35,435 nt of DNA, taken from the IMG/VR virus record IMGVR_UViG_3300030606_000030, positions 1 through 35,435 of that record; one strand, given 5' to 3'. Shown here one piece after another: positions 3,128 to 34,174 of this stretch; position 1 is the stretch's first letter; each line of letters starts with the position of its first letter. The notes under the pieces were generated by a model that saw only the letters and a list, made by a program, of their open reading frames with translations, was not told the DNA's origin and made no database searches. The position numbers and the translations under genes are program-made. The stretch comes from a virus. Its lineage: Duplodnaviria > Caudoviricetes.

Positions 3128-4953
3128 CGCGCGCCTTGCATGGTAATTGGCACGGCTCTTACGGGACCGCCAAGTGCCCGGCCCATGACGACCGCTCGCC
3201 CAGCCTCTCGATCAGCGACGGAGACAATGGCGGGCTTCTGGTCCACTGCCACGCCGGCTGCTCGCAGGATCAGGTCATCGGCGCGCTCTCCGATCGGGGG
3301 CTGTGGAACGGTCACACGACGGAGCGGGGCCTAAAGCCCGTCGCCCACGCGAAATTCGGCAAGCCCAATGAGATCTACGTCTATACCGAGGATTTCGAGG
3401 TGTGGCGTTGGGAGGCGATCGCGGATCGCCCAAAGGTAATCCGCCCGCTCTACCGGCTGGATGGCGAGTGGCAGTGGAAGCAAAGCATGCCGCCGCCTCG
3501 GCCGCTCTATCGCTTGGCTTCGTTGAAGGCGGACACGTTTCGTCCAGTTTTGCTTGTCGAGGGAGAGAAAACGGCCGAGACGGCTCAATTATTGCTTTCA
3601 CAGTTCACGGTCATGACCTGGCCCGGCGGCGCGAAAGCTATCAAGCAGATCGATTGGCACCCTCTCGGCCACCGGAAAGTGATCTGCTGGCCGGATGCGG
3701 ACGACGAAGGCAAGCGGAGCATGCGGGAGATCGCGGCGAAGCTGACGCATCTCGGGGCTGATGTGCGGATCGTCGACGTGCCGTCGAGTTTGCCGCGTAA
3801 ATGGGACCTGGCCGACAATATCCCGGACGGGCTGGACATCGAGGAGATGATCGCGGCCGCACCCCAGTACACGGCCGAGAAGGCCACTCTGGGTAGCGGG
3901 ATCGCGGTCGTGCGCCCCGAGACGCTGGCGGGAGAGCCTCCGGAAAGACCCTGGCTGGTGGCCGATTGGATTCCTCTCCGGGCCGTCACGATGCTCTCCG
4001 GCGACGGCGGACTCGGCAAGAGCCTGCTCGACATGCAGCTGCAGACCTGTTGCGCGGAGGGGCGCGCCTGGCTCGGTCAATTCGCAAAACGGTGTGTCAG
4101 CGTCGGCGTCTACTGCGAAGACGAAGTCGACGAGCTCCGGCGTCGCCAAATGGCGATCAACAAGGCATTGGGCATCGACACGCCGCCAGGAATGCACTGG
4201 GTAACCCGTGTCGGCTCCGACAACGCCTTGGTCACGTTCGACCGCTTCACCGGAGAAATGGAGCCTACCGGGCTATTTGAGGACCTGCATCGTCTGACGC
4301 AGGATCTCGGGGCCCGCCTGTTGATCCTTGACGCGCTCCACGACTTTTATCCCGGGAACGAGAACGATCGCGTGATGGCGCGACGGTTCATCAATCTCCT
4401 GACCCAGCTCGCCTGCGACATGGACGGCGCTATCGTCCTGAACGCGCATCCGTCCCTGAGCGGCCGCGCCAGCGGCACCGGCGAGTCCGGCAGCACCGCC
4501 TGGAGCAACGCCGTCCGCTCGCGGCTCTATTTCCACCGGCCGCTTGTCGACGGACTGGAGAGCAACGACCGCGACGCGCGGATTTTGAGCAACCGCAAGG
4601 CCAACTATTCGGCCAGTGGGAACACGATCCAATGCCGCTATCGCGATGGCATGTTCGAGCCGAAAGCGACTACGCCGACGAGCGCGGGAGCCGTGGAGCG
4701 CATATTCCTGGACGCCGTGGAGCGCCTTACGAAGCAAGGCGTCAACATGAGCTTCAGTTCGCACGCATCGAATTATGCCGTGCGAAACATCATGACCGCC
4801 GGGCTGAACGATGGAGCAACCAGTCAGGATCTTGCAAAAGCGCTTCGGAACCTCGAGACACGAGGGATCATCGGGACAGAAAAATATGGGAAGCCGAGCA
4901 ACCAGCACACGCGGCTGGCCATCGTTCGAAGGGATCTTTTCAATGCGGCGTAG
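3109..4953 (+). CDS. Primase-helicase fusion (zinc finger + Toprim + RepA/AAA_25 SF4 helicase)
   Basis: GAGGGG RBS and GTG at 3109; CPAHDDRSPSL..HCHAGC zinc finger; VEGEKTA..WPDADDEG Toprim; Walker A GDGGLGKS; Walker B LLILDAL; SGSTAWSNAVRSR. Confidence 0.92.
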   Translation: MDARGLTRALHGNWHGSYGTAKCPAHDDRSPSLSISDGDNGGLLVHCHAGCSQDQVIGALSDRGLWNGHTTERGLKPVAHAKFGKPNEIYVYTEDFEVWRWEAIADRPKVIRPLYRLDGEWQWKQSMPPPRPLYRLASLKADTFRPVLLVEGEKTAETAQLLLSQFTVMTWPGGAKAIKQIDWHPLGHRKVICWPDADDEGKRSMREIAAKLTHLGADVRIVDVPSSLPRKWDLADNIPDGLDIEEMIAAAPQYTAEKATLGSGIAVVRPETLAGEPPERPWLVADWIPLRAVTMLSGDGGLGKSLLDMQLQTCCAEGRAWLGQFAKRCVSVGVYCEDEVDELRRRQMAINKALGIDTPPGMHWVTRVGSDNALVTFDRFTGEMEPTGLFEDLHRLTQDLGARLLILDALHDFYPGNENDRVMARRFINLLTQLACDMDGAIVLNAHPSLSGRASGTGESGSTAWSNAVRSRLYFHRPLVDGLESNDRDARILSNRKANYSASGNTIQCRYRDGMFEPKATTPTSAGAVERIFLDAVERLTKQGVNMSFSSHASNYAVRNIMTAGLNDGATSQDLAKALRNLETRGIIGTEKYGKPSNQHTRLAIVRRDLFNAA

Positions 4954-4980
4954 GATATCCTGTCGGTTGAAAGAGCGAAC

Positions 4981-5115
4981 GTCCCGGTTGGTCCCGGTTC
5001 CCTGTAAGTCATTGAAATTGGCCCGTCCTGGTTATTTCGTCCTGGTTCGGTCCAGGTCCGTCCTGGTTATCCATAACACTTTGATATCATTCGCAGGTCT
5101 AGGTTCGTCCAGGTT
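4981..5115. repeat. Putative replication origin: eight GTCYNGGTY iteron-like repeats with IHF-like sites
   Basis: Copies at 4981, 4991, 5025, 5039, 5050, 5060, 5097, 5107; TAACACTTTGATA (5074-5086) fits IHF consensus YAANNNNTTGATW; TAAGTCATTGAAA (5005-5017) is one mismatch; directly downstream of the primase-helicase. Confidence 0.7.
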
Positions 5116-5388
5116 GCGTCCGGCTAGGTCCTACTACTACGTAGATAGAGGAGGTGGTGGTAGTGGTGGTCGGTGTAGGTCGAGACGACAGCGCAGCGCA
5201 GCGGGTGTCCCGGTCCTAGCGCTCCGCCTGGAGGGCTCGCTTGGACCCGGACCCCTTGCGCTCTCGATCCATCATCGAACGGCTTTCCTCTCACGTCCTG
5301 GATTCAACGTGCCAGTATCCGCGCCCGCGCGCGAGCGGCCCCACCCGCACCTTCCCGAAGGCGAAATTTTCAGACCGGAGAAAACACC

Positions 5389-5655
5389 ATGAGCAAACCA
5401 GCAACCAAACCGCCGTCGAGATCGTCGAAGCCCCGGCCGCCGCCCGCGCCGCCTAAGCACATGAGCCGTCCTACGGTGCGGCAGGTAACGGAGCTGCAAG
5501 GCTTGTTGCGCGAGGCCAATGTGGACAGGCTTCGAGCAATCCTGGCACGTGACCGCGCCGAGACTCGGCTGCTGCGCATTGCTCTGCTGTGCCTCGCCGC
5601 GGGGCTCGCCGTCGGCGGGGTGGCCATGTTCGGGATCCTTGCAGTGGGAGGGTGA
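5389..5655 (+). CDS. Small protein with C-terminal transmembrane helix
   Basis: GGAG RBS; hydrophobic C-terminus IALLCLAAGLAVGGVAMFGILAV. Confidence 0.7.
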   Translation: MSKPATKPPSRSSKPRPPPAPPKHMSRPTVRQVTELQGLLREANVDRLRAILARDRAETRLLRIALLCLAAGLAVGGVAMFGILAVGG

Positions 5656-5685
5656 ACACCATGCCGCTGCCCCTGATCAGCGGCC

Positions 5686-5819
5686 GGCGCGAGGCCAGCC
5701 GTGGCGTGATAGCCAGCTACATCCTGCCTCGCGCCATCTACACCATGCCGCCGTCCCAAACCGGCGGCCGCCACGGGACCATGCCACAGGTGACAACCAG
5801 CACCTTGCTGTCCCGTGGC
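5686..5819 (+). ncRNA. TIGR-like guide units 1-2 (stem-flanked dual-spacer units)
   Basis: GGCGCGAGG-CCA-GCCGTGGCG-TGATAGCCA-GCTACATCC-TG-CCTCGCGCC (5686-5735) and GCCACGGGA-CCA-TGCCACAGG-TGACAACCA-GCACCTTGC-TG-TCCCGTGGC (5770-5819); both have perfect 9-bp stems. Confidence 0.85.
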
Positions 5820-5870
5820 CCTCACAACCTCCGGCCCGGGTGTTTGGGATCGGGCTAGGAGACTAAGACC

Positions 5871-6605
5871 ATGACAATGAAGGATAAACTCGCAAGCGCC
5901 GGCGCGCTGCCGCCCGACCGGAGGCTCTACCTGCTGGCGGTGAAATGCCTACAGGGTGCGGACGGCGTGCCCACGCGCGCGGTGGAGGGTTTCCTTGACG
6001 GCCTGCGCGCGGAGCCGGACCTGCTGTTGGCATTGCTCGCCAAGGACGAAATCGGACAACCGGCGTGGCGCTATCTGAACGCGCGTGCTCAAGAGATGGC
6101 CGGGAAGCCGGCCCGCGGGGGCCAGTCAGCATCTGACAGCCATTTGAGCGGTGCCCCCGCGACCAAACCCCGCCCGGGCGGCCATCCTGGCACTGAAAAC
6201 CATATTGGCGGTGCCGCTCCGGGCGGTGGCGCGAACGGGGCGGGCCACCTTGACGCTGACATCCAAACTACCGGTGCCCGTCCCGTTTCGGTTCGCGCTC
6301 ACAATCGCAGGACACCCGAGGGTCATGCCGCGCTCACCAAGAGCTTCTGGGATCAGAAGCTCGGCCTGTTCGACATCACGCTCAAGACGGCCACGCGGCA
6401 GGATTTCGTCAACCTCAAGCGCAAGGGCATGGTGGTCGACCATATCGCGGATCGCGCGCTGACCGAGATCGATTGGCCGGACGATGTGACGCCGCTGCCC
6501 GAGGTGGCGACACAGGCGCAGGTGGAGGCGATCTTGGCGAGCGGGCGCAAGCTTCTCGGATCGCTCGGTATCGCGAAGGTCAAGGAGGTAGGCCATGCGG
6601 CGTGA
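5871..6605 (+). CDS. Hypothetical protein immediately upstream of Tas; central linker encoded by three guide units
   Basis: AGGAG RBS; helical N- and C-terminal parts joined by a Gly/Pro-rich linker with GQxxxDxH/GHxxxExH/GHxxxDxQ repeats; overlaps the Tas start. Confidence 0.8.
   Translation: MTMKDKLASAGALPPDRRLYLLAVKCLQGADGVPTRAVEGFLDGLRAEPDLLLALLAKDEIGQPAWRYLNARAQEMAGKPARGGQSASDSHLSGAPATKPRPGGHPGTENHIGGAAPGGGANGAGHLDADIQTTGARPVSVRAHNRRTPEGHAALTKSFWDQKLGLFDITLKTATRQDFVNLKRKGMVVDHIADRALTEIDWPDDVTPLPEVATQAQVEAILASGRKLLGSLGIAKVKEVGHAA
6114..6288 (+). ncRNA. TIGR-like guide units 3-5 (inside ORF 5871-6605)
   Basis: CCA-GTCAGCATC-TGACAGCCA-TTTGAGCGG-TG (CCA at 6122); CCA-TCCTGGCAC-TGAAAACCA-TATTGGCGG-TG (6182); CCA-CCTTGACGC-TGACATCCA-AACTACCGG-TG (6245); each closed by its own GC-rich stem. 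Confidence 0.85.
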
Positions 6606-7482
6606 TGGAAACCCGGAGGACGACGGAGGCCAACCAGATCATGACATCCAGACACGAACTGCCTCCGCGTTGGGAGAGGGGGCGGCCCATGGGCATCATG
6701 AAAGCCAAAGTAGTAGTGTCCGCTCCCTCTCCGAAGTCTGCGATCTGTTGGCCAATGCCCAGGCTAAGCGGCGCTTCTGCATCGGCCAGCAGTCGCGTCT
6801 CAACAATGCCCTCGGTGCGCTCGCACGCTGGCAGCTTGGCTGGAAGGTCAGCCTGCCGGAAGCGGAGCGGGAGCGCATTCGCAAGGACGCCGCTAAGCTG
6901 GTCAAGGCGGTCCAGGATGGCGAGCTGCCCGCCGGCATGGAGGATGCGGCGGAAACGCTGCTGCCCTACGTGCAGGACACCGCCATCGGGCGCACGCCCT
7001 TTGATCTGCGCCGCAAGGAGATCGAGAAGGAGATGCGGAAGCTGGTGCGGGATCTGCCGGCCTACGAGTTCGCAGAGAGTGTGAAGGGATTCGGGGATCT
7101 CGCCTTGGCGGTGATCGTGGGCGAGGCCGGGAACCTCGCCAACTATCCGCACTGGCAGCACTTGTGGAAACGGCTCGGCTGGGCGCCGCGCGAGGAATAC
7201 CCGAAGGGCGAGAAGTCCGAGGGCCGCAAGGTGCCGCGCCGGGTGAAGGGCGAGCTATACGGCACCGTCATCGAGCCGCTCATGAAGCTCAACGGTGACG
7301 GCAAATACAAAGCGCTCTACGACCGGCGCAAGGCGGACTACCTGGCGCGCTTCGAGGCCGACGGCAGCAAGACGCCCAAGCTGCACGCCCACAAGCTCGC
7401 CATGCGGGTGATGCTCAAAGAGCTGCTTAAGGATCTTTGGAAGGCCTGGAATGGCCAACTCGACCGTGACGACCAGACGTGA
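6595..7482 (+). CDS. tasA: TasA-like RNA-guided Nop/IS110-domain protein with no nuclease domain
   Basis: AAGGAGG RBS; RRFCIGQQSRLNNAL coiled coil; FAESVKGFGDLALAVIVGEAGNLANYPHWQHLWKRLGWAP (IS110 Transposase_20/Nop-like); C-terminal YKALYDRRK..HAHKLAMRVMLKELLKDLWKAW; no N-terminal DEDD RuvC or HNH; flanked by dual-spacer units. Confidence 0.85.
   Translation: MRRDGNPEDDGGQPDHDIQTRTASALGEGAAHGHHESQSSSVRSLSEVCDLLANAQAKRRFCIGQQSRLNNALGALARWQLGWKVSLPEAERERIRKDAAKLVKAVQDGELPAGMEDAAETLLPYVQDTAIGRTPFDLRRKEIEKEMRKLVRDLPAYEFAESVKGFGDLALAVIVGEAGNLANYPHWQHLWKRLGWAPREEYPKGEKSEGRKVPRRVKGELYGTVIEPLMKLNGDGKYKALYDRRKADYLARFEADGSKTPKLHAHKLAMRVMLKELLKDLWKAWNGQLDRDDQT
6624..6732 (+). ncRNA. TIGR-like guide units 6-7 (inside the 5' end of the Tas ORF)
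   Basis: CGGAGG-CCA-ACCAGATCA-TGACATCCA-GACACGAAC-TG-CCTCCG; GGAGAGGGGGCGGC-CCA-TGGGCATCA-TGAAAGCCA-AAGTAGTAG-TG-TCCGCTCCCTCTCC. Confidence 0.85.
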
Positions 7483-7785
7483 TGTGCCAACCAGGCTTTC
7501 CCTCGGGGCGGGCCAGCATAGCTGTGATTGCCAGAAATGGGCCGCCTGCCCCGCAGTTTCGGAGGACCAGAACATGCCTGACAACCAGCTTGTGCGTGTC
7601 CTCTATCGGCGGGAGGCCGTCCTCCTCATGACAACCAAATCAACTATGCCTCCCGCCGTTACCTTCGCCGTGGAGAGGGCTAGGCACCAACTGCTTGCCA
7701 GAGAAGGTTTGCCCAGACCGGGGCGCGCGCGGGCGGAGGGCCAGATAGAGGCTGATATCCAGTCCTGGCCTGCCCTCCGCCCCGC
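7439..7785 (+). ncRNA. TIGR-like array downstream of Tas, units 8-13
   Basis: Spacer pairs ACTCGACCG/GACGTGATG (CCA at 7455), GCATAGCTG/GAAATGGGC (7513), GAACATGCC/GCTTGTGCG (7567), TCCTCCTCA/AATCAACTA (7617, CCG variant), GGCACCAAC/GAGAAGGTT (7680, degenerate), GATAGAGGC/GTCCTGGCC (7741); loop TGANNNCCA; stems flank each unit. Confidence 0.88.
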
Positions 7786-7814
7786 AACCCTCTGCAACTG
7801 ATTCGGAGACCTGG

Positions 7815-8384
7815 ATGCCCAGCCGCGCCGCCCGCCGCCGCCGGTTCCGCAAGGCGAAGGCCAAGGAGATGACCCTGCCGGAGGCCGCCAACGACGAGGT
7901 CCCGCCCCCGCCCGAGCGGTTCGGCCACGGCGACGCGATCGAACGGGCGCGCGCCTCCGACGCCATGCCGTGGGGCGACCGCCCGCCGCTCCGGGTCGCG
8001 ACCGAGAACATGCTCGACAGGTATCTCCGCCAGGGCGCGATCAAGCAGCCTCAGCACGACGCCGGCATGCGGCTCTACCGCGAATGGCTCGGCACCGGTG
8101 CGAACCCCAAGGTGGTGGGCGGGTTCCTCATCCGCATCGAGGCGCCGCCAAGTTTCAGCGCGCACCAGGCCGAGATGCGCCTGCTGGTCAACCGCGCGGC
8201 CGCGGCAGTCGGTCCGGTCGCCTACGGGGTCCTGTTCCACGTCTGCTGCTGCAACCTCTCGGCGCGGGACTGGACGCTGGCGCGGGGTTACCGGGTGAAC
8301 GTCGCCAAATCGGCCGGCATCGTGATCCTCAAGGAGGCGCTGCACAGCCTCGAAAAGCACTACCGCGAAAGGGGAGGGCGATGA
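7815..8384 (+). CDS. DUF6456-like phage late transcription regulator
   Basis: GGAG RBS; ENMLDRYLRQGAIKQPQHDAGMRLYREW and C-terminal LKEALHSLEKHY; position between replication and packaging modules. Confidence 0.75.
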   Translation: MPSRAARRRRFRKAKAKEMTLPEAANDEVPPPPERFGHGDAIERARASDAMPWGDRPPLRVATENMLDRYLRQGAIKQPQHDAGMRLYREWLGTGANPKVVGGFLIRIEAPPSFSAHQAEMRLLVNRAAAAVGPVAYGVLFHVCCCNLSARDWTLARGYRVNVAKSAGIVILKEALHSLEKHYRERGGR

Positions 8385-8698
8385 GCCATAATGCCAAACC
8401 TGTAACCATCAGGGGGATAACCTATCCATCTGGTCGTGCTGCTGCATTGGCGCTCGGCTTATGCCCAGACACAGTTACTAAGGCAGCGAAACGCGGAACA
8501 TTGGATTTTGTGGGACTCGGGCCGCGTGGCTCGAAAGGTAGAAGTCACAGAGGTAAACCGATAATTATTCAAGGTGTACGATATCCATCACAACGAATTG
8601 CAGCGGAGGTATTGGGGGTTCACCAAGCCACGGTTTCCCAAGCAAAACGCCAGGGATGGCTTGATCGTCTCGGAACGAAACAGTCAAAGCTCAAATAA
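8381..8698 (+). CDS. Small DNA-binding protein with two NUMOD1/HTH-like repeats
   Basis: ATGA overlap; KPVTIRGITYPSGRAAALALGL and KPIIIQGVRYPSQRIAAEVLGV; visibly lower GC than neighbours. Confidence 0.8.
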   Translation: MSHNAKPVTIRGITYPSGRAAALALGLCPDTVTKAAKRGTLDFVGLGPRGSKGRSHRGKPIIIQGVRYPSQRIAAEVLGVHQATVSQAKRQGWLDRLGTKQSKLK

Positions 8699-8706
8699 TT
8701 TTCCGC

Positions 8707-8737
8707 TTGACAGGGGGCCCCCGGAAGTCGTTAGGCT
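8707..8737 (+). promoter_or_regulatory. Putative late promoter
   Basis: Perfect -35 TTGACA at 8707-8712 after an AT-rich tract; candidate -10 TAGGCT at 8732-8737 (19-bp spacing, suboptimal). Confidence 0.45.
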
Positions 8738-8768
8738 TGTCAGCGTTCCACAATTGGGTCAGCACCAT

Positions 8769-8798
8769 GCCCCGCCGGCATCGCCCGCGCGGGGCTTT
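8769..8798 (+). terminator. Terminator-like hairpin in the late leader
   Basis: GCCCCGC...GCGGGGC followed by TTT (short U tract). Confidence 0.4.
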
Positions 8799-8816
8799 CC
8801 GTTGCCGGGAGGGCAG

Positions 8817-29889: not shown

Positions 29890-30427
29890 GCGCGGCCAAG
29901 GCGGCTGGTTCACGATCCCCAATATCCAGGATGGCGAGCGGACGCTCGAAGAAGGCATCCGCGGCATTGAAGTGCTGCGCCACGAGGCGCGCCATGCCCG
30001 GGTGCTGGATCTCGGCTGCGCCGAGGGCCTGATCGCGCGCTGGTTCATCGAGGCGGGGGCGCAATCGGCCGATGGCATCGACATTGATCGCAGGGCGCTC
30101 GCGCTTGGCCATGCGCTCGCCGAGCGACCGGATGGCCGGAAACTGCATCTCTGGTGGGCGGACTTCGACGATCCCGCGACCTGGCCGGGCCTCAAGATCG
30201 ACTACGACATCGTGATGTGCCTCTCGGTCTTGCACAAGCTGAGGAACCCGGCGCCGCTGCTCGATCTCGCCATCGCAAAGGCGTGCCGCTGGCTGGCGGT
30301 GCGCGCGCCGGCGCGCACGCTGAAGAGCGGCTTCGCCATCAAGACCATGATCGAGGAGGCCGGGTTCCGCATGGTCTCCGAGGTTATGGATATTCCCTGG
30401 GTGGGCATATTCCGAAGATGCACCTAG
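29861..30427 (+). CDS. Class I SAM methyltransferase
   Basis: VLDLGCAEG, GIDID, YDIVMCLSVLHK. Confidence 0.88.
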   Translation: MSLPSLPFRERGQGGWFTIPNIQDGERTLEEGIRGIEVLRHEARHARVLDLGCAEGLIARWFIEAGAQSADGIDIDRRALALGHALAERPDGRKLHLWWADFDDPATWPGLKIDYDIVMCLSVLHKLRNPAPLLDLAIAKACRWLAVRAPARTLKSGFAIKTMIEEAGFRMVSEVMDIPWVGIFRRCT

Positions 30428-31101
30428 ACGATCAGGTTCTCTTCGTCCATTGCCCGCGCACGTCAGGGACCGCCATCCGGCGGTCTCTTCTTTTGGGGGC
30501 CGATCCCAACGCCCGGGCGCAGTGGCCTCCCGACCTCGGCAAGCACGCCTTCGCCTCGCAGCTACGGGAACGTATCCCGGCGGAGGTGTGGGAGACGCGA
30601 TTCAAGTTCGCGGTCGTGCGCAATCCCTGGGACCGGTTGGTCAGCCTCTACCATCTTTTTCGGCGACCGACGGAGCCGACGTTTCAGGAACGGGCGGCTG
30701 GGGCGAAGTTGCCGATCAAGCTCGGCAAGTTCATGGCCGCGTTGCCAAAGGCGCCGAAGGCGGAGAAGGCCAAGCAACGGCTCTACGCGCAGCGGGCGCT
30801 CAAGCTGTCGTTCCTCGACTGGCTGAAGTTCTGCGATGACACGGGCTGGCAGGCCTGCCCCTATCTCGGCGTCGGGCCGATGACGCGAATCCCGCAGTCG
30901 CGGTGGTTCGACGGCCTCGACCGGGTGCTCCGCTTCGAGTACCGCGAGGAGATCGACGGCTTCCTGCGAGCCCGCGGCTATCCGCCGGCGGTGCCTGAGA
31001 ACGTCACGCTGCATCGGCCATGGATCGCCTACTACGATGCGCCAGCCTACGACCGGGTGGCGGCCATCTTCGCCGAGGACATCGCGCGGTTCGGCTACTG
31101 A
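30418..31101 (+). CDS. Sulfotransferase family 2 protein
   Basis: 5'-PSB LFVHCPRTSGTAI; 3'-PB FAVVRNPWDRLVSLY; C-terminal FAEDIARFGY. Confidence 0.88.
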   Translation: MHLDDQVLFVHCPRTSGTAIRRSLLLGADPNARAQWPPDLGKHAFASQLRERIPAEVWETRFKFAVVRNPWDRLVSLYHLFRRPTEPTFQERAAGAKLPIKLGKFMAALPKAPKAEKAKQRLYAQRALKLSFLDWLKFCDDTGWQACPYLGVGPMTRIPQSRWFDGLDRVLRFEYREEIDGFLRARGYPPAVPENVTLHRPWIAYYDAPAYDRVAAIFAEDIARFGY

Positions 31102-31102
31102 C

Positions 31103-31930
31103 ATGGGTTGCGGCGATGAAATCCTAGTGACCGGCGAGGCGCGGGCGCTGCAGGAGGCCGACCCGGCGCGGCGGCGGGTGCTCGTGGTGGATCGCCACAA
31201 TCGGCCGCGCTGGCATGCGCTGTGGGAACGCAATCCGCGCATCGTGCCACCGGGCAGCGAACGCAACGGCGAGCGGCTGCTGCGATTAGCTAACGCGGCC
31301 TGGACTCGACCCTATATCGACTGGCATCGCATGAAGGCGGAATTCGTGGCGATCCATCCGGGCCGCGAGTTCACCACCAAGAAGATCCGCGATCCCCGGT
31401 TGCCCTGGCGCTTCACCGGACACAAGGCCAAGCGTGGTGAACTCTATCTGGAGCGCTGCGAGAAGCGCGGCTACATCGTGATCGAGCCGCACTACAAGGC
31501 GGGCGTGTCGCCGAACAGGGACTGGGGATTCGAGCGCTATCAGCAGGTGGTCAATGCGCTGCCCGGCCTCGACTGGGTCCAGTTGAACCCAAATGGGTCC
31601 GAACTTCTGCGCGGCGTGCGCCACCTGCCGGCGGATCACTTCGCCTTGGCCTGCTGGCTGCTCTCGGGCGCGGCGCTCTACGTCGGGCCGGAGGGCGGGC
31701 TCTATCATGCTGCGGCGGCGCTCAGCGTGCCGGCAGTGGCGATCTTCGGCGGCTTCGTCAGCCCGGCCAACCAGGGCTACGACGATCCGAACTACGTGAA
31801 CCTTTACGAGCCGATGGACGGGCTAAGCCCCTGCGGTCAGCGGGTGCCGTGCCCGCACTGCAAGGACGCCATGGCGCGCATCACGCCCGAGCGGGTGATC
31901 GCGGGAGTGCGAAAGATCCTGAATGTCTGA
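31103..31930 (+). CDS. GT9 (heptosyltransferase-like) glycosyltransferase
   Basis: MGCGDEILVT; NRDWG; YVGPEGGLYHAAAALSVPAVAIFG; PCG..CPHC..MARIT. Confidence 0.85.
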   Translation: MGCGDEILVTGEARALQEADPARRRVLVVDRHNRPRWHALWERNPRIVPPGSERNGERLLRLANAAWTRPYIDWHRMKAEFVAIHPGREFTTKKIRDPRLPWRFTGHKAKRGELYLERCEKRGYIVIEPHYKAGVSPNRDWGFERYQQVVNALPGLDWVQLNPNGSELLRGVRHLPADHFALACWLLSGAALYVGPEGGLYHAAAALSVPAVAIFGGFVSPANQGYDDPNYVNLYEPMDGLSPCGQRVPCPHCKDAMARITPERVIAGVRKILNV

Positions 31931-33167
31931 CATCTACACCACTATCGCCGACTGCCGGCTGTGCGGCTGCGCCGATTTGGCCGAAGTCGTGCATCTTGGC
32001 GAGCGGCCGCTCTCGGGCACGTTCCCGCTACCGGACGAATCCGTGCCAAGCGGACCGCTCAGGCTCCTGCGCTGCCAAGCCTGCGGCCTCGTCCAGCTCG
32101 GCGAGAACTATCGCCCCGACCTGCTCTATGGAGAGAACTATGGCTACCGCTCCGGCCTCAACCGCGCCATGGTCGAGCATCTGCAGGACCTGGCTCGATA
32201 TGCAGCGCGCGTGGCTGATCTGCAGCCGGGTGACCTGGTCGTTGATGTCGGCTCAAACGACGGCACACTGCTTCGATCTTATCCGACCAAAGGGCTCTCC
32301 AAAGTCGGCATCGACCCGACCGCCGCCAAGTTCCGCGAGCACTACGAGCCGGAGGTCGAGGTCTATCCCGGCTTCTTCTCAGGCGAGGCCATCGAAGCGC
32401 TCGGTATAGCCTGCAAGGCCAGAATCGTCACCTCGATCGCCTGCTTCTACGACCTGGAGCGCCCGCTCGCGTTCGTAAACGACGTTCTGGAAGCGCTTGC
32501 CGACGATGGCATCTGGATCTCCGAGCAATCCTATCTCCCCGCGATGATCCAGGCGCACGCCTACGACACCATCTGCCACGAGCACCTGGAATACTACCGG
32601 CTCGCAGACTTCGCGTTCATCGCACGGCTCTATGGGCTCCAGATCCTCGACGTGGCGATGAACGACGTGAACGGCGGTTCGTTCCGGGTGACGCTCGCGC
32701 GCGAGGGCGCGCCCTATGTCGGCAATCCGGCGAAGGTGAACGAAACGCTCGCAGCGGAGGATCGTGATTATGGCTGGCTATGTGTGCCTCGGCCCATGCG
32801 AGATTTAGCCGGCTGGCTGCCCGGTCATCGCGACGCGCTGCTCTCGACCCTCGCCAACTTCAAGGCGCGCGGCAAGACGGTCATGGGCTACGGCGCCTCG
32901 ACCAAGGGCAATGTGCTCCTCAACTACTGTGGCATCGGGCCGGACCTGCTGCCCGCCATCGCCGAAGTGAACGAGGACAAGTTCGGCCGGGTGACGCCGG
33001 GCTCGGCCATCCCGATCATCCCGGAGGCGGAAGCGCGGGAGCGCGCCGACGCCTTCCTGGTACTGCCGTGGCACTTCCGGCGCGAGATCTGCCGCAAGGA
33101 GGAGGGGTTTCTGCTGAGTGGCGGGCAGCTGATCTTTCCGCTGCCCGAAGTCGAGGTGATCGGGTGA
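31923..33167 (+). CDS. NDP-hexose C3-methyltransferase (TcaB9/EryBIII/NovU family)
   Basis: Zn motif CRLCG..CQACGLVQL; DVGSNDG; YDTICHEHLEYY; GYGASTKGNVLLNY; LVLPWHF. Confidence 0.92.
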   Translation: MSDIYTTIADCRLCGCADLAEVVHLGERPLSGTFPLPDESVPSGPLRLLRCQACGLVQLGENYRPDLLYGENYGYRSGLNRAMVEHLQDLARYAARVADLQPGDLVVDVGSNDGTLLRSYPTKGLSKVGIDPTAAKFREHYEPEVEVYPGFFSGEAIEALGIACKARIVTSIACFYDLERPLAFVNDVLEALADDGIWISEQSYLPAMIQAHAYDTICHEHLEYYRLADFAFIARLYGLQILDVAMNDVNGGSFRVTLAREGAPYVGNPAKVNETLAAEDRDYGWLCVPRPMRDLAGWLPGHRDALLSTLANFKARGKTVMGYGASTKGNVLLNYCGIGPDLLPAIAEVNEDKFGRVTPGSAIPIIPEAEARERADAFLVLPWHFRREICRKEEGFLLSGGQLIFPLPEVEVIG

Positions 33168-34174
33168 AGCGCGCGTTCGTCACCGGGATCTCCGGTCAGG
33201 ACGGCGCCTACCTCGCGCAGTTCCTGCTCGGCCAGGGCTATCAGGTATTCGGTGGTGAGCGGCGCGGTTCCTCGCCGAACAACTGGCGCCTGAAGGCGCT
33301 CGGCATCCATGGCGAGGTCGAACTGGTGCCGTTCGAGCTGGCCGACGATGCCAGCATCTACCGCGCGATCGAGGTCGCCCAGCCCGACGAGATCTACAAC
33401 CTTGCGGCCCAGTCTTTCGTGCCGGTCAGCTTCCAGCAGCCATGCTACACCGGCGACGTGAACGGCAGCGCCGTGGCGCGCATCCTGGAGGCGATCCGGC
33501 ACCTCGCCCCCGAGTGCCGGTTCTATCAGGCTTCCAGCTCGGAGATGTTCGGCCTCGCGCACGAGACGCCGCAGCGCGAGACCACTCCCTTTCACCCGCG
33601 CAGCCCCTATGCAGCCGCCAAAGCCTATGCCCACTATCTGACGGTCAACTACCGCGAGGCCTACGGGCTGCACGCCTCCTGCGGCATCGCGTTCAACCAC
33701 GAGAGTCCGCTCAGGGGCGCGGAGTTCGTCACCAAGAAGATCGTCGTCGATCTTGCGCGCATCCACCGCGGCGACCTCGATTGCCTCAGGCTCGGCAACC
33801 TAGACGCTCGGCGCGACTGGGGCTTCGCCGGCGACTACGTGAAGGGCATGTGGCAGATGCTACAGCAATCCGGGCCTGAGGATTACATCCTCGCGACCGG
33901 CGAAACCCATTCGATCCGGGAATTCGTCGAGTGGGCCTGCGCCGTGCTCGACTGGAGCATCGAATGGACCGGCGAAGGCGGCGAGGAGCGCGGCATCGAA
34001 ACCAGCAGCGGGCGGATGCTAGTGGCGATCGACCCGGCCCTCTACCGGCCTTCGGACGTGCCGGCGCTGCTCGGTGACGCCACCAAGGCGCGCGAGACCT
34101 TCGGCTGGCAGCCGCTCCATACCGCCGGCCAGATCGCCTTCATGATGATGGACCACGAGCTTTCTCATGTCTGA
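33164..34174 (+). CDS. gmd: GDP-mannose 4,6-dehydratase
   Basis: TGISGQDGAYLA, PDEIYNLAAQSFV, FYQASSSEMFG, PRSPYAAAK, FNHESPLRG, RDWGFAGDYV. Confidence 0.96.
   Translation: MKRAFVTGISGQDGAYLAQFLLGQGYQVFGGERRGSSPNNWRLKALGIHGEVELVPFELADDASIYRAIEVAQPDEIYNLAAQSFVPVSFQQPCYTGDVNGSAVARILEAIRHLAPECRFYQASSSEMFGLAHETPQRETTPFHPRSPYAAAKAYAHYLTVNYREAYGLHASCGIAFNHESPLRGAEFVTKKIVVDLARIHRGDLDCLRLGNLDARRDWGFAGDYVKGMWQMLQQSGPEDYILATGETHSIREFVEWACAVLDWSIEWTGEGGEERGIETSSGRMLVAIDPALYRPSDVPALLGDATKARETFGWQPLHTAGQIAFMMMDHELSHV

Follow-up and report, generated by a model that had tools for sequence, protein, structure and literature searches.

The DNA analysed here, which we call the window, is the whole 35,435-nt virus record IMGVR_UViG_3300030606_000030, a 35.4-kb record of a soil phage. 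Between positions 5695 and 7772 it carries 13 hairpin units, each with two 9-nt spacers (A and B), placed around and inside tasA, the gene for a Nop-domain protein. We found that this locus is a stem-loop TIGR-TasA system, a known kind, and that it is nuclease-free. In related loci, the natural target of such a guide appears to be most often 17 bp long, which suggests that the 18-bp rule applied in the initial annotation is probably one base too long.

The guide array and its TasA protein

The elements of the locus are listed below; guides are also named by the first position of their cores, and "complementary" refers to the last bases of spacers A and B.

6595..7482, + strand: tasA, 295 amino acids, coiled coil and Nop domain; its first 47 residues overlap guides 6 and 7, and its stop lies within guide 8
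5695..5726, + strand: guide 1 core, with box C, spacer A (5698-5706), 9-nt loop, spacer B (5716-5724) and box D, within a stem; complementary
5779..5810, + strand: guide 2 core; complementary
6122..6153, + strand: guide 3 core; complementary; 17-bp form at chance level in IMG/VR
6182..6213, + strand: guide 4 core; complementary; two exact 17-mers and no exact 18-mer in IMG/VR, chance level
6245..6276, + strand: guide 5 core; complementary; two exact 17-mers (one cluster) and no exact 18-mer in IMG/VR
6630..6661, + strand: guide 6 core, in the 5' end of tasA; non-complementary
6687..6718, + strand: guide 7 core, in the 5' end of tasA; non-complementary; the sole guide closed in the 17-bp coding register
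7455..7486, + strand: guide 8 core, overlapping the tasA stop codon; non-complementary
7513..7544, + strand: guide 9 core; complementary; 381 alphaproteobacterial genomes contain neither a 17- nor an 18-bp match
7567..7598, + strand: guide 10 core; complementary; short stem
7617..7648, + strand: guide 11 core; non-complementary
7680..7711, + strand: guide 12 core; degenerate, with two box mismatches and a weak stem
7741..7772, + strand: guide 13 core; non-complementary
5871..6605, + strand: open reading frame (ORF) of 244 amino acids, no family assigned; guides 3-5 lie in frame within its low-complexity middle
7815..8384, + strand: DUF6456 gene, which closes the locus and is followed by methylase, terminase and head genes

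The 13 units sit where the initial annotation had placed them, with the first spacer A starting at 5698 and the last spacer B ending at 7770, and all 13 of its predicted 18-mers (spacer A followed by rc(B), the reverse complement of spacer B) were rebuilt letter for letter by script. We searched for the box pattern CCA-N9-TGA-N3-CCA-N9-TG, allowing at most one mismatch, in the window and in 100 shuffles of it. The window gave 13 matches against 0.44 expected (maximum 3 in the 100 shuffles): 12 guides and one stray on the opposite strand. Two 9-nt spacers lie between box C and box D, with at most one box mismatch, in 12 of the 13 units, and 11 of the 13 guides fold into a palindromic stem at z ≤ -1.8. 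Guide 7567 folds more weakly (z -0.76), and guide 7680, with two box mismatches and no significant fold (z +0.27), is degenerate and may be decaying. By placement, two guides are intergenic, three lie within the 244-amino-acid ORF, two in the 5' end of ORF 6595-7482, one over its stop and five downstream. No promoter or terminator signal was found. A contig of run X1 covers window positions 4900-8800 with all letters identical and may be the window's source.

The protein matches TaTasR (9MTY) at a phmmer E value of 2e-4. A structure model of residues 48-295 is all-helical (predicted local distance difference test score, pLDDT, 91.6), with three long N-terminal helices, and the ten best matches in a fold search are all TasH or TasR proteins (E 0.001-0.007, probability 1.0). 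Family scans and the same model revealed no RuvC, HNH or other nuclease family in TasA. Its last helix stops 10 residues before the end and the remaining tail contains neither Tyr nor His, so that a Y/H processing loop is absent. The DEDD recombinase domain that marks IS110 bridge recombinases is likewise missing and, instead of an RNA with target and donor loops, there are 13 separate guides. Nor does the locus have the GGY/NN repeat RNA or the Vipr protein of VIPR systems, having box C/D hairpins and a Nop fold instead. The closest TasA proteins (78% and 67%) are encoded on contigs of 1.5-3 kb. Elsewhere, 79 mycobacteriophage records contain a protein weakly homologous to a TasA relative (among the matches listed, E about 1e-5 to 1e-6; for example MZ648034.1:44978-45694), annotated as hypothetical, transposase or DNA-binding.

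Site length and natural targets in related loci

To the window we added 124 related TasA loci. Units with a 9-nt loop numbered 421 in 74 loci (382 unique), and units with longer loops gave 180 unique guides in 52 loci (218 found, versus 14 on the opposite strand); together with the window's 7680 unit, the set comprises 563 guides. In those 52 loci (for example L009, L021, L023 and L045), the loops measure 10-21 nt and form an inner hairpin, while the 9-nt spacers are unchanged.

The initial annotation had expected true A/B pairs, joined as 18-mers, to outnumber shuffled pairs among related genomes. We found no such enrichment: with 382 guides and 2.0 Mb there were no exact matches, and three at one mismatch compared with one to six in the shuffles. 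As 18-mers, the family guides gave no matches above shuffles, and a codon-phase test for 18 bp returned z -0.8, against 7.5 for real coding 18-mers used as a positive control.

The spacers themselves point to a different length. A table of every base of A against every base of B had one outlying cell, in which the last base of A (A9) is complementary to the last base of B (B9; z 7.9). This complementarity occurs in 161 of the 382 9-nt-loop guides, where shuffling within loci gives 113.6 ± 7.5 (maximum 139 of 5000), and it was replicated in the long-loop guides (72 of 180; null 51.2 ± 4.9, maximum 69 of 3000). Overall, 233 of 563 guides are complementary and the loci do not differ (p 0.54). A 17-bp site whose two half-sites share one base pair would give this pattern. 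An apparent covariation of A6 with B6 (z 4.0) was rejected after failing to replicate (z 0.8); neither palindromic targets nor hairpins between A and B were in excess, and a synonymous centre in non-complementary guides (252 of 330 versus 244 ± 5) was not significant.

For the target search, the phage records of the family were extended to 3.5 Mb. In sibling genomes, the 17-bp geometry gave three matches at one mismatch or fewer, where 0.36 were expected, and two guides of a Bosea vaviloviae prophage (L035) match the prophage's own genes save for silent third positions. We then compared all 563 guides with own and sibling genes, allowing at most three differences, all silent, over two 8-nt cores, in four lengths and six registers (24 cells). 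A single cell stood out: 17 bp, with spacer B as the coding strand from codon position 1 (register B0), where eight guides matched and 0.30 were expected (Fisher p 6e-8, 1 of 24 cells). The runner-up was 18 bp in the same register (3 versus 0.70, p 0.04). The outlying cell was chosen after the two L035 guides had been seen; without them six remain against 0.3, for which a hand calculation gives a Poisson probability of about 1e-6. Non-cognate pairs within each phage (555 guides), used as a further null, gave 0 of 2494 in this cell.

The eight matched genes encode a minor tail protein, a tail sheath, a virion structural protein, a head-tail adaptor, a tail-fibre-like protein, a terminase (in a sibling), MucR/Ros and one product without assignment; six of the eight belong to the tail, head-tail or terminase class. 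Mismatches fall at target positions 3, 6, 12 and 15, and once at 7. The centre, which was not scored, is complementary in five of the eight guides. The targets that could be detected are homologues of the phage's own genes.

Two guides have perfect natural matches, both of 17 bp. Guide L035:9729 matches 17/17 in the tail-sheath genes of two other Bosea prophages (G540 and G541), which are 75-78% identical in DNA to L035's own sheath gene; the own site has two silent differences. The same guide matches 16/17 in a third Bosea genome and in phage L111, and at one mismatch or fewer it occurs in 9 of 91 Bosea genomes, where a control pattern gave none. Eight of its eleven sites fall in other genes. 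Read as an 18-mer, this guide would break the frame. We also observed a 16/17 match to it in a 637-codon frame of six Bosea genomes (L378, L381-L385), not in its own host.

The second, L037:9721, matches 17/17 in a further mucR copy, which belongs to the same genome bin (G070:C81:18660-18676). Because the contig of this copy also carries mnmE, mnmG and a sugar transporter, it is probably host chromosome. The prophage's own mucR/ros adjoins tasA and differs from the guide at three silent positions. The arrangement looks like that of the TldR regulators, which reportedly silence the host copy of a gene while the prophage carries its own. MucR is an H-NS-like protein of Alphaproteobacteria (PMC11662661, in the parts available). 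Since L037:9721 is non-complementary, with a site that follows B9, guides of this type can have 17-bp sites too.

These data bear on two further points of the initial annotation. Opposite-strand tandem pairing, with A followed by rc(B), is the order of every natural target found in related loci. Its flush 18-bp site is probably wrong, since the best natural sites measure 17 bp with one shared middle base pair; one guide, L033:10531, does match as 18 bp. Located directly after tasA, this guide reads WKRMGL, a conserved tas motif, as an 18-bp site (17/18 in L111, five mismatches to its own gene), and its 18-mer does not occur in IMG/VR. TasA-versus-TasA targeting is possible. Separately, guide L065:863 fits a sibling's tas gene with silent differences. 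The last guide of another array, L067:11174, fits a 16-bp site with a 2-bp overlap in sibling phage L059 (11409-11424), spanning the ribosome site and start codon of the gene that follows; at L067's own orthologous site the A half is kept and the B half differs. With single natural matches of 16 and 18 bp, the geometry of guide and site is not uniform and the junction is probably flexible.

Spacers also appear to be exchanged quickly. In four closely related prophages (L009, L013, L049 and L054), the same hairpin scaffolds stand at the same places and contain wholly different spacers. Since near-identical phages hold different spacers in the same hairpins, spacer replacement appears to be fast and to proceed without growth of the array.

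Targets of the window's own guides

The earlier statement that the window contains no full match was borne out. As A followed by rc(B), the best match has four mismatches (3 of 13 guides), no better than non-cognate pairs; in the order rc(B) then A the best has three; and five join orders together with gapped halves gave nothing above chance in the window. Nor did any window guide match the window's own genes with silent differences only. The proposal that the targets lie outside this genome is supported as well.

We extended the search to 271 sequences (4.53 Mb) comprising TasA loci, their phage records and flanks, excluding the window's own record and loci hit in the wide scans. The best matches to window guides had two to four mismatches, as did shifted pairs; the reverse order gave two to three. 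Wide scans covered 4 of the 13 guides: 6182 and 6245 at both lengths and 6122 at 17 bp alone, all three in IMG/VR, and 7513 in the 381 alphaproteobacterial genomes. No exact 18-mer was found in these scans for guides 6182, 6245 or 7513. Exact 17-mers numbered two for 6182, two for 6245, five for 6122 and none for 7513, in no case above other centre variants.

For guide 6182, IMG/VR contained six matches to the pattern 8-N(1,2)-8, including the two exact 17-mers, of which one is in frame within a DpdA-like gene carried by an unrelated phage and one is intergenic in a provirus of 51% GC; other window guides showed nothing beyond chance against the phage with the DpdA-like match. Guide 6122 gave 72 matches to a 16-variant 17-bp pattern, five of them exact where 4.5 were expected; of these five, one falls in a portal gene and one in a head-tail adaptor gene, two are unassigned and one lies in another register. 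Guide 6245 gave 25 matches in about nine clusters. The IMG/VR matches of all three guides are at chance level and serve as candidates only.

Close siblings of the window phage were not found by tasA and primase searches in IMG/VR, and the closest capsid among the INPHARED matches listed is at most 48% identical. A metagenome search at JGI (Joint Genome Institute) returned the window's own record (L211, excluded from all counts) and five loci at 37-41%. Because this phage has no close relative in the collections searched, no target for its guides is expected there and the negative result is no refutation; it is weak evidence about this phage's targets.

As working predictions of the window's sites we propose 17-mers consisting of A followed by rc(B) minus its first base, with the middle base left open for the six non-complementary guides. 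The favoured 17-bp register is open in 12 of the 13 guides (for example FERML, NYRRQ, EMGSY, NQLEE and EKVLV). Since other registers are open in 9-12 of the 13, these open frames are no evidence by themselves. A codon model places the favoured 17-bp register first for 6 of the 13 guides and 18 bp for 2 of the 13.

The remaining genes include a primase-helicase, a GcrA-like domain, a methylase, a terminase, a portal and a capsid, from which we take the window to be probably a phage of Alphaproteobacteria; no integrase was seen among the window genes. Two regions away from the guides also drew attention. At 4985-5135, directly after the primase-helicase gene, several near copies of a short GTCCTGGTT-like word form an origin-like stretch. 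At 30154-34174, after the tail region, genes for a sulfotransferase, a glycosyltransferase, a C-methyltransferase and a GDP-mannose dehydratase suggest surface or virion sugar modification.

Proposed mechanism, rival readings and known systems

On balance, and with moderate confidence, we favour the reading that the 13 hairpins are two-part guides for the adjacent nuclease-free TasA: each would bring a dimer of this protein to a roughly 17-bp site, located in a gene of a rival phage or of the host, and block transcription there, while the phage's own copy is spared. This reading builds on the guide anatomy, the TasA fold, the A9/B9 complementarity and the 17-bp natural matches in related loci. 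Going by published work, the array would be transcribed with its host genes and cut into hairpins, and a TasA dimer would load one guide, open the DNA and block RNA polymerase. If the guides of this phage obey the rule of their family, spacer A would pair with one strand and spacer B with the other, sharing the middle base pair. The targets would be late genes of rival phages and one host regulator; silent wobble-base differences would spare the phage's own copy, and repression may give it a competitive edge.

Several results weigh against this reading. For the window's own guides, no target above chance was found in the sequences searched, and complementarity in 7 of the 13 is not significant alone (4.5 expected, p 0.11). 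Across the family, A9 and B9 do not complement each other in 330 of 563 guides, the codon-phase signal is weak when tested within loci (z 1.3), and the matches explain 8 of 563 guides (1.4%), leaving 98.6% unexplained. A held-out test with the cell fixed beforehand covered 170 guides and 61 further stretches, with 0.90 Mb of coding DNA that was new to the analysis and in part host chromosome. Its power was low, and none of the 170 guides fell in the chosen cell (null 0.08), where the discovery rate predicts about two. The three matches of this test are all 17 bp (0.7 expected; other lengths 0 versus 2.25), in other registers, one of them from a doubtful GC-only unit. Two other guides of the Bosea prophage L035 have no match in the 91 Bosea genomes, and a third has six one-mismatch matches, none in the predicted gene family. 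Once the gene is known, finding a perfect match is not very surprising where homologues share a conserved motif built from common codons, and the mucR genome is a metagenome bin. Finally, L033:10531 (the same as L118) fits tas genes solely as 18 bp, and L067:11174 fits its sibling solely as 16 bp.

The many non-complementary guides would suit a first rival, in which most guides obey the rule of the initial annotation, a flush 18-bp site as in TaTasR, PlTasA and CsTasR, and 17-bp sites are a minority. That length is used in published assays and structures, the 18-bp cell in register B0 has its own small excess (3 versus 0.70), L033:10531 reads in frame through the tas motif only at 18 bp, and window guide 6245 matches a terminase cluster as 18 bp except at the two middle bases. 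We nonetheless consider it unlikely: the published sites were designed from spacers and are not natural finds, 18-mers were not enriched in any shuffle test, their codon phase fell far from the positive control, and both perfect natural matches are 17 bp. A second possibility, in our view quite unlikely, is that the guides also act on self, with positions 3, 6 and 9 tolerating mismatch, so that TasA represses late genes of its own phage and its kin as RNA-guided immunity or a brake on lysogeny. Seven of the eight register matches do lie in the phage's own genes, with mismatches at spacer positions 3, 6 and 9 and one at 7, and VIPR, in the parts of its report available, skips the codon wobble base (10.64898/2026.04.26.720920). 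Homologues, where found, match better than self, however; no guide has a perfect self target except one doubtful GC-only unit, and the window itself offers no silent-only match to any of its guides. Moreover, the sections available of Faure 2025 (PMC12045711) place the seed of TaTasR next to the cut (positions 3-4, in our interpretation).

Fast spacer turnover and the 98.6% of guides without an explanation are also compatible with A9/B9 complementarity arising from guide RNA structure or spacer capture, unrelated to binding, most guides being stale and without a living target. This we regard as very improbable, because the 17-bp natural matches stay in frame across the junction, and spacer capture with a 1-bp overlap would in any case make the natural site 17 bp long. 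We give almost no credence to pairing with RNA in the manner of box C/D snoRNAs, with spacer A antisense to mRNA in the favoured register. The Nop fold and the strand bias (eight matches in register B0, none in the mirror register A0) would suit it, but spacer B equals the coding strand, which leaves template DNA as its sole pairing partner; the sections available of Faure 2025 (PMC12045711) report TasR as inactive on RNA, and TasA binds DNA according to published work.

More tentatively, and somewhat against the balance of our own judgement, the targeting of competitors may extend to the alphaproteobacterial TasA clade as a whole. The clade would be a phage silencing system with its own code: 17 bp, a shared middle base, a codon register on one strand, and wobble bases separating self from non-self. 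It would be aimed at the virion, terminase and tas genes of rivals and at host regulators such as the silencer MucR, for which a prophage would substitute its own version. In that case the 1-bp overlap would be left over from the IS110 bridge-RNA core and would reflect how spacer pairs are captured.

Both main papers on TIGR systems, in the parts available, call the natural targets of the guides an open question, and Faure 2025 (PMC12045711) describes genuine targets as hard to identify. New here are natural targets of such guides and a corrected targeting rule for this TasA clade. A 17-bp site would escape an 18-mer search, and this may be one reason why natural targets have been hard to find. 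The 17-bp rule makes the question directly testable with the 17,756 published stem-loop guides, the cultured Bosea vaviloviae SD260 prophage and Escherichia coli reporters, and it bears on guide design for TasA repressors and on the acquisition of paired spacers. A further ready test system is the cultured Rhizobium phage RHph_X2_25 (L001:19171-20672; MW960032.1), which has a TasA homologue and seven guides between two repressor-like genes.

Stem-loop guide processing, dimer binding and TasA repression are documented in the available parts of Faure 2025 (PMC12045711), Xu 2026 (10.64898/2026.09.09.750476) and Guan 2026 (10.64898/2026.08.11.744272). The sections available of Faure 2025 report spacers A and B without obvious covariation, consider overlap unlikely, and include tests of 1-2 bp gaps and no overlap test; the available parts of Guan 2026, of PMC13421893 and of a yeast preprint contain nothing on overlap. 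In the literature searched, supplements aside (figures S5 and S7 of Faure 2025 could bear on it), we found no paper on 17-bp sites or natural TasA targets. The window's system resembles the published stem-loop TIGR-TasA systems (PlTasA, BlTasA and MbTasA) in its Nop-only protein without a C-terminal Y/H loop, its 9-nt spacers between C/D boxes, 9-nt loop and variable stems, and its guides on both sides of and inside the tas gene. It differs in that those systems are described with a flush 18-bp site, no covariation and targets that could not be determined so far, whereas within this clade the last bases covary and 17-bp natural sites occur.

IS110/IS621 bridge RNAs share a related Nop-like fold and, in the parts available of Durrant 2024 (PMC11208160), have left and right guides that pair with opposite strands and overlap at a shared 2-bp core; in contrast, the system described here has no recombinase domain, no donor loop, many guides and a 1-bp overlap without a fixed core sequence. 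VIPR (10.64898/2026.04.26.720920), as far as its available parts describe it, is likewise a phage-borne RNA-guided silencer directed at other phages, with coding targets in a wobble register, but its protein and its RNA, with a GGY/NN code, are unrelated. VIPR acts on both strands and passes over the wobble base, whereas the TasA clade reads wobble bases and one orientation prevails. TldR of temperate phages (10.1101/2023.11.30.569447; PMC13418256, both in the parts available) is similarly a prophage RNA-guided regulator of a host gene; it is derived from TnpB and uses a single guide, whereas here a Nop protein works with an array, and one such host case has been found.

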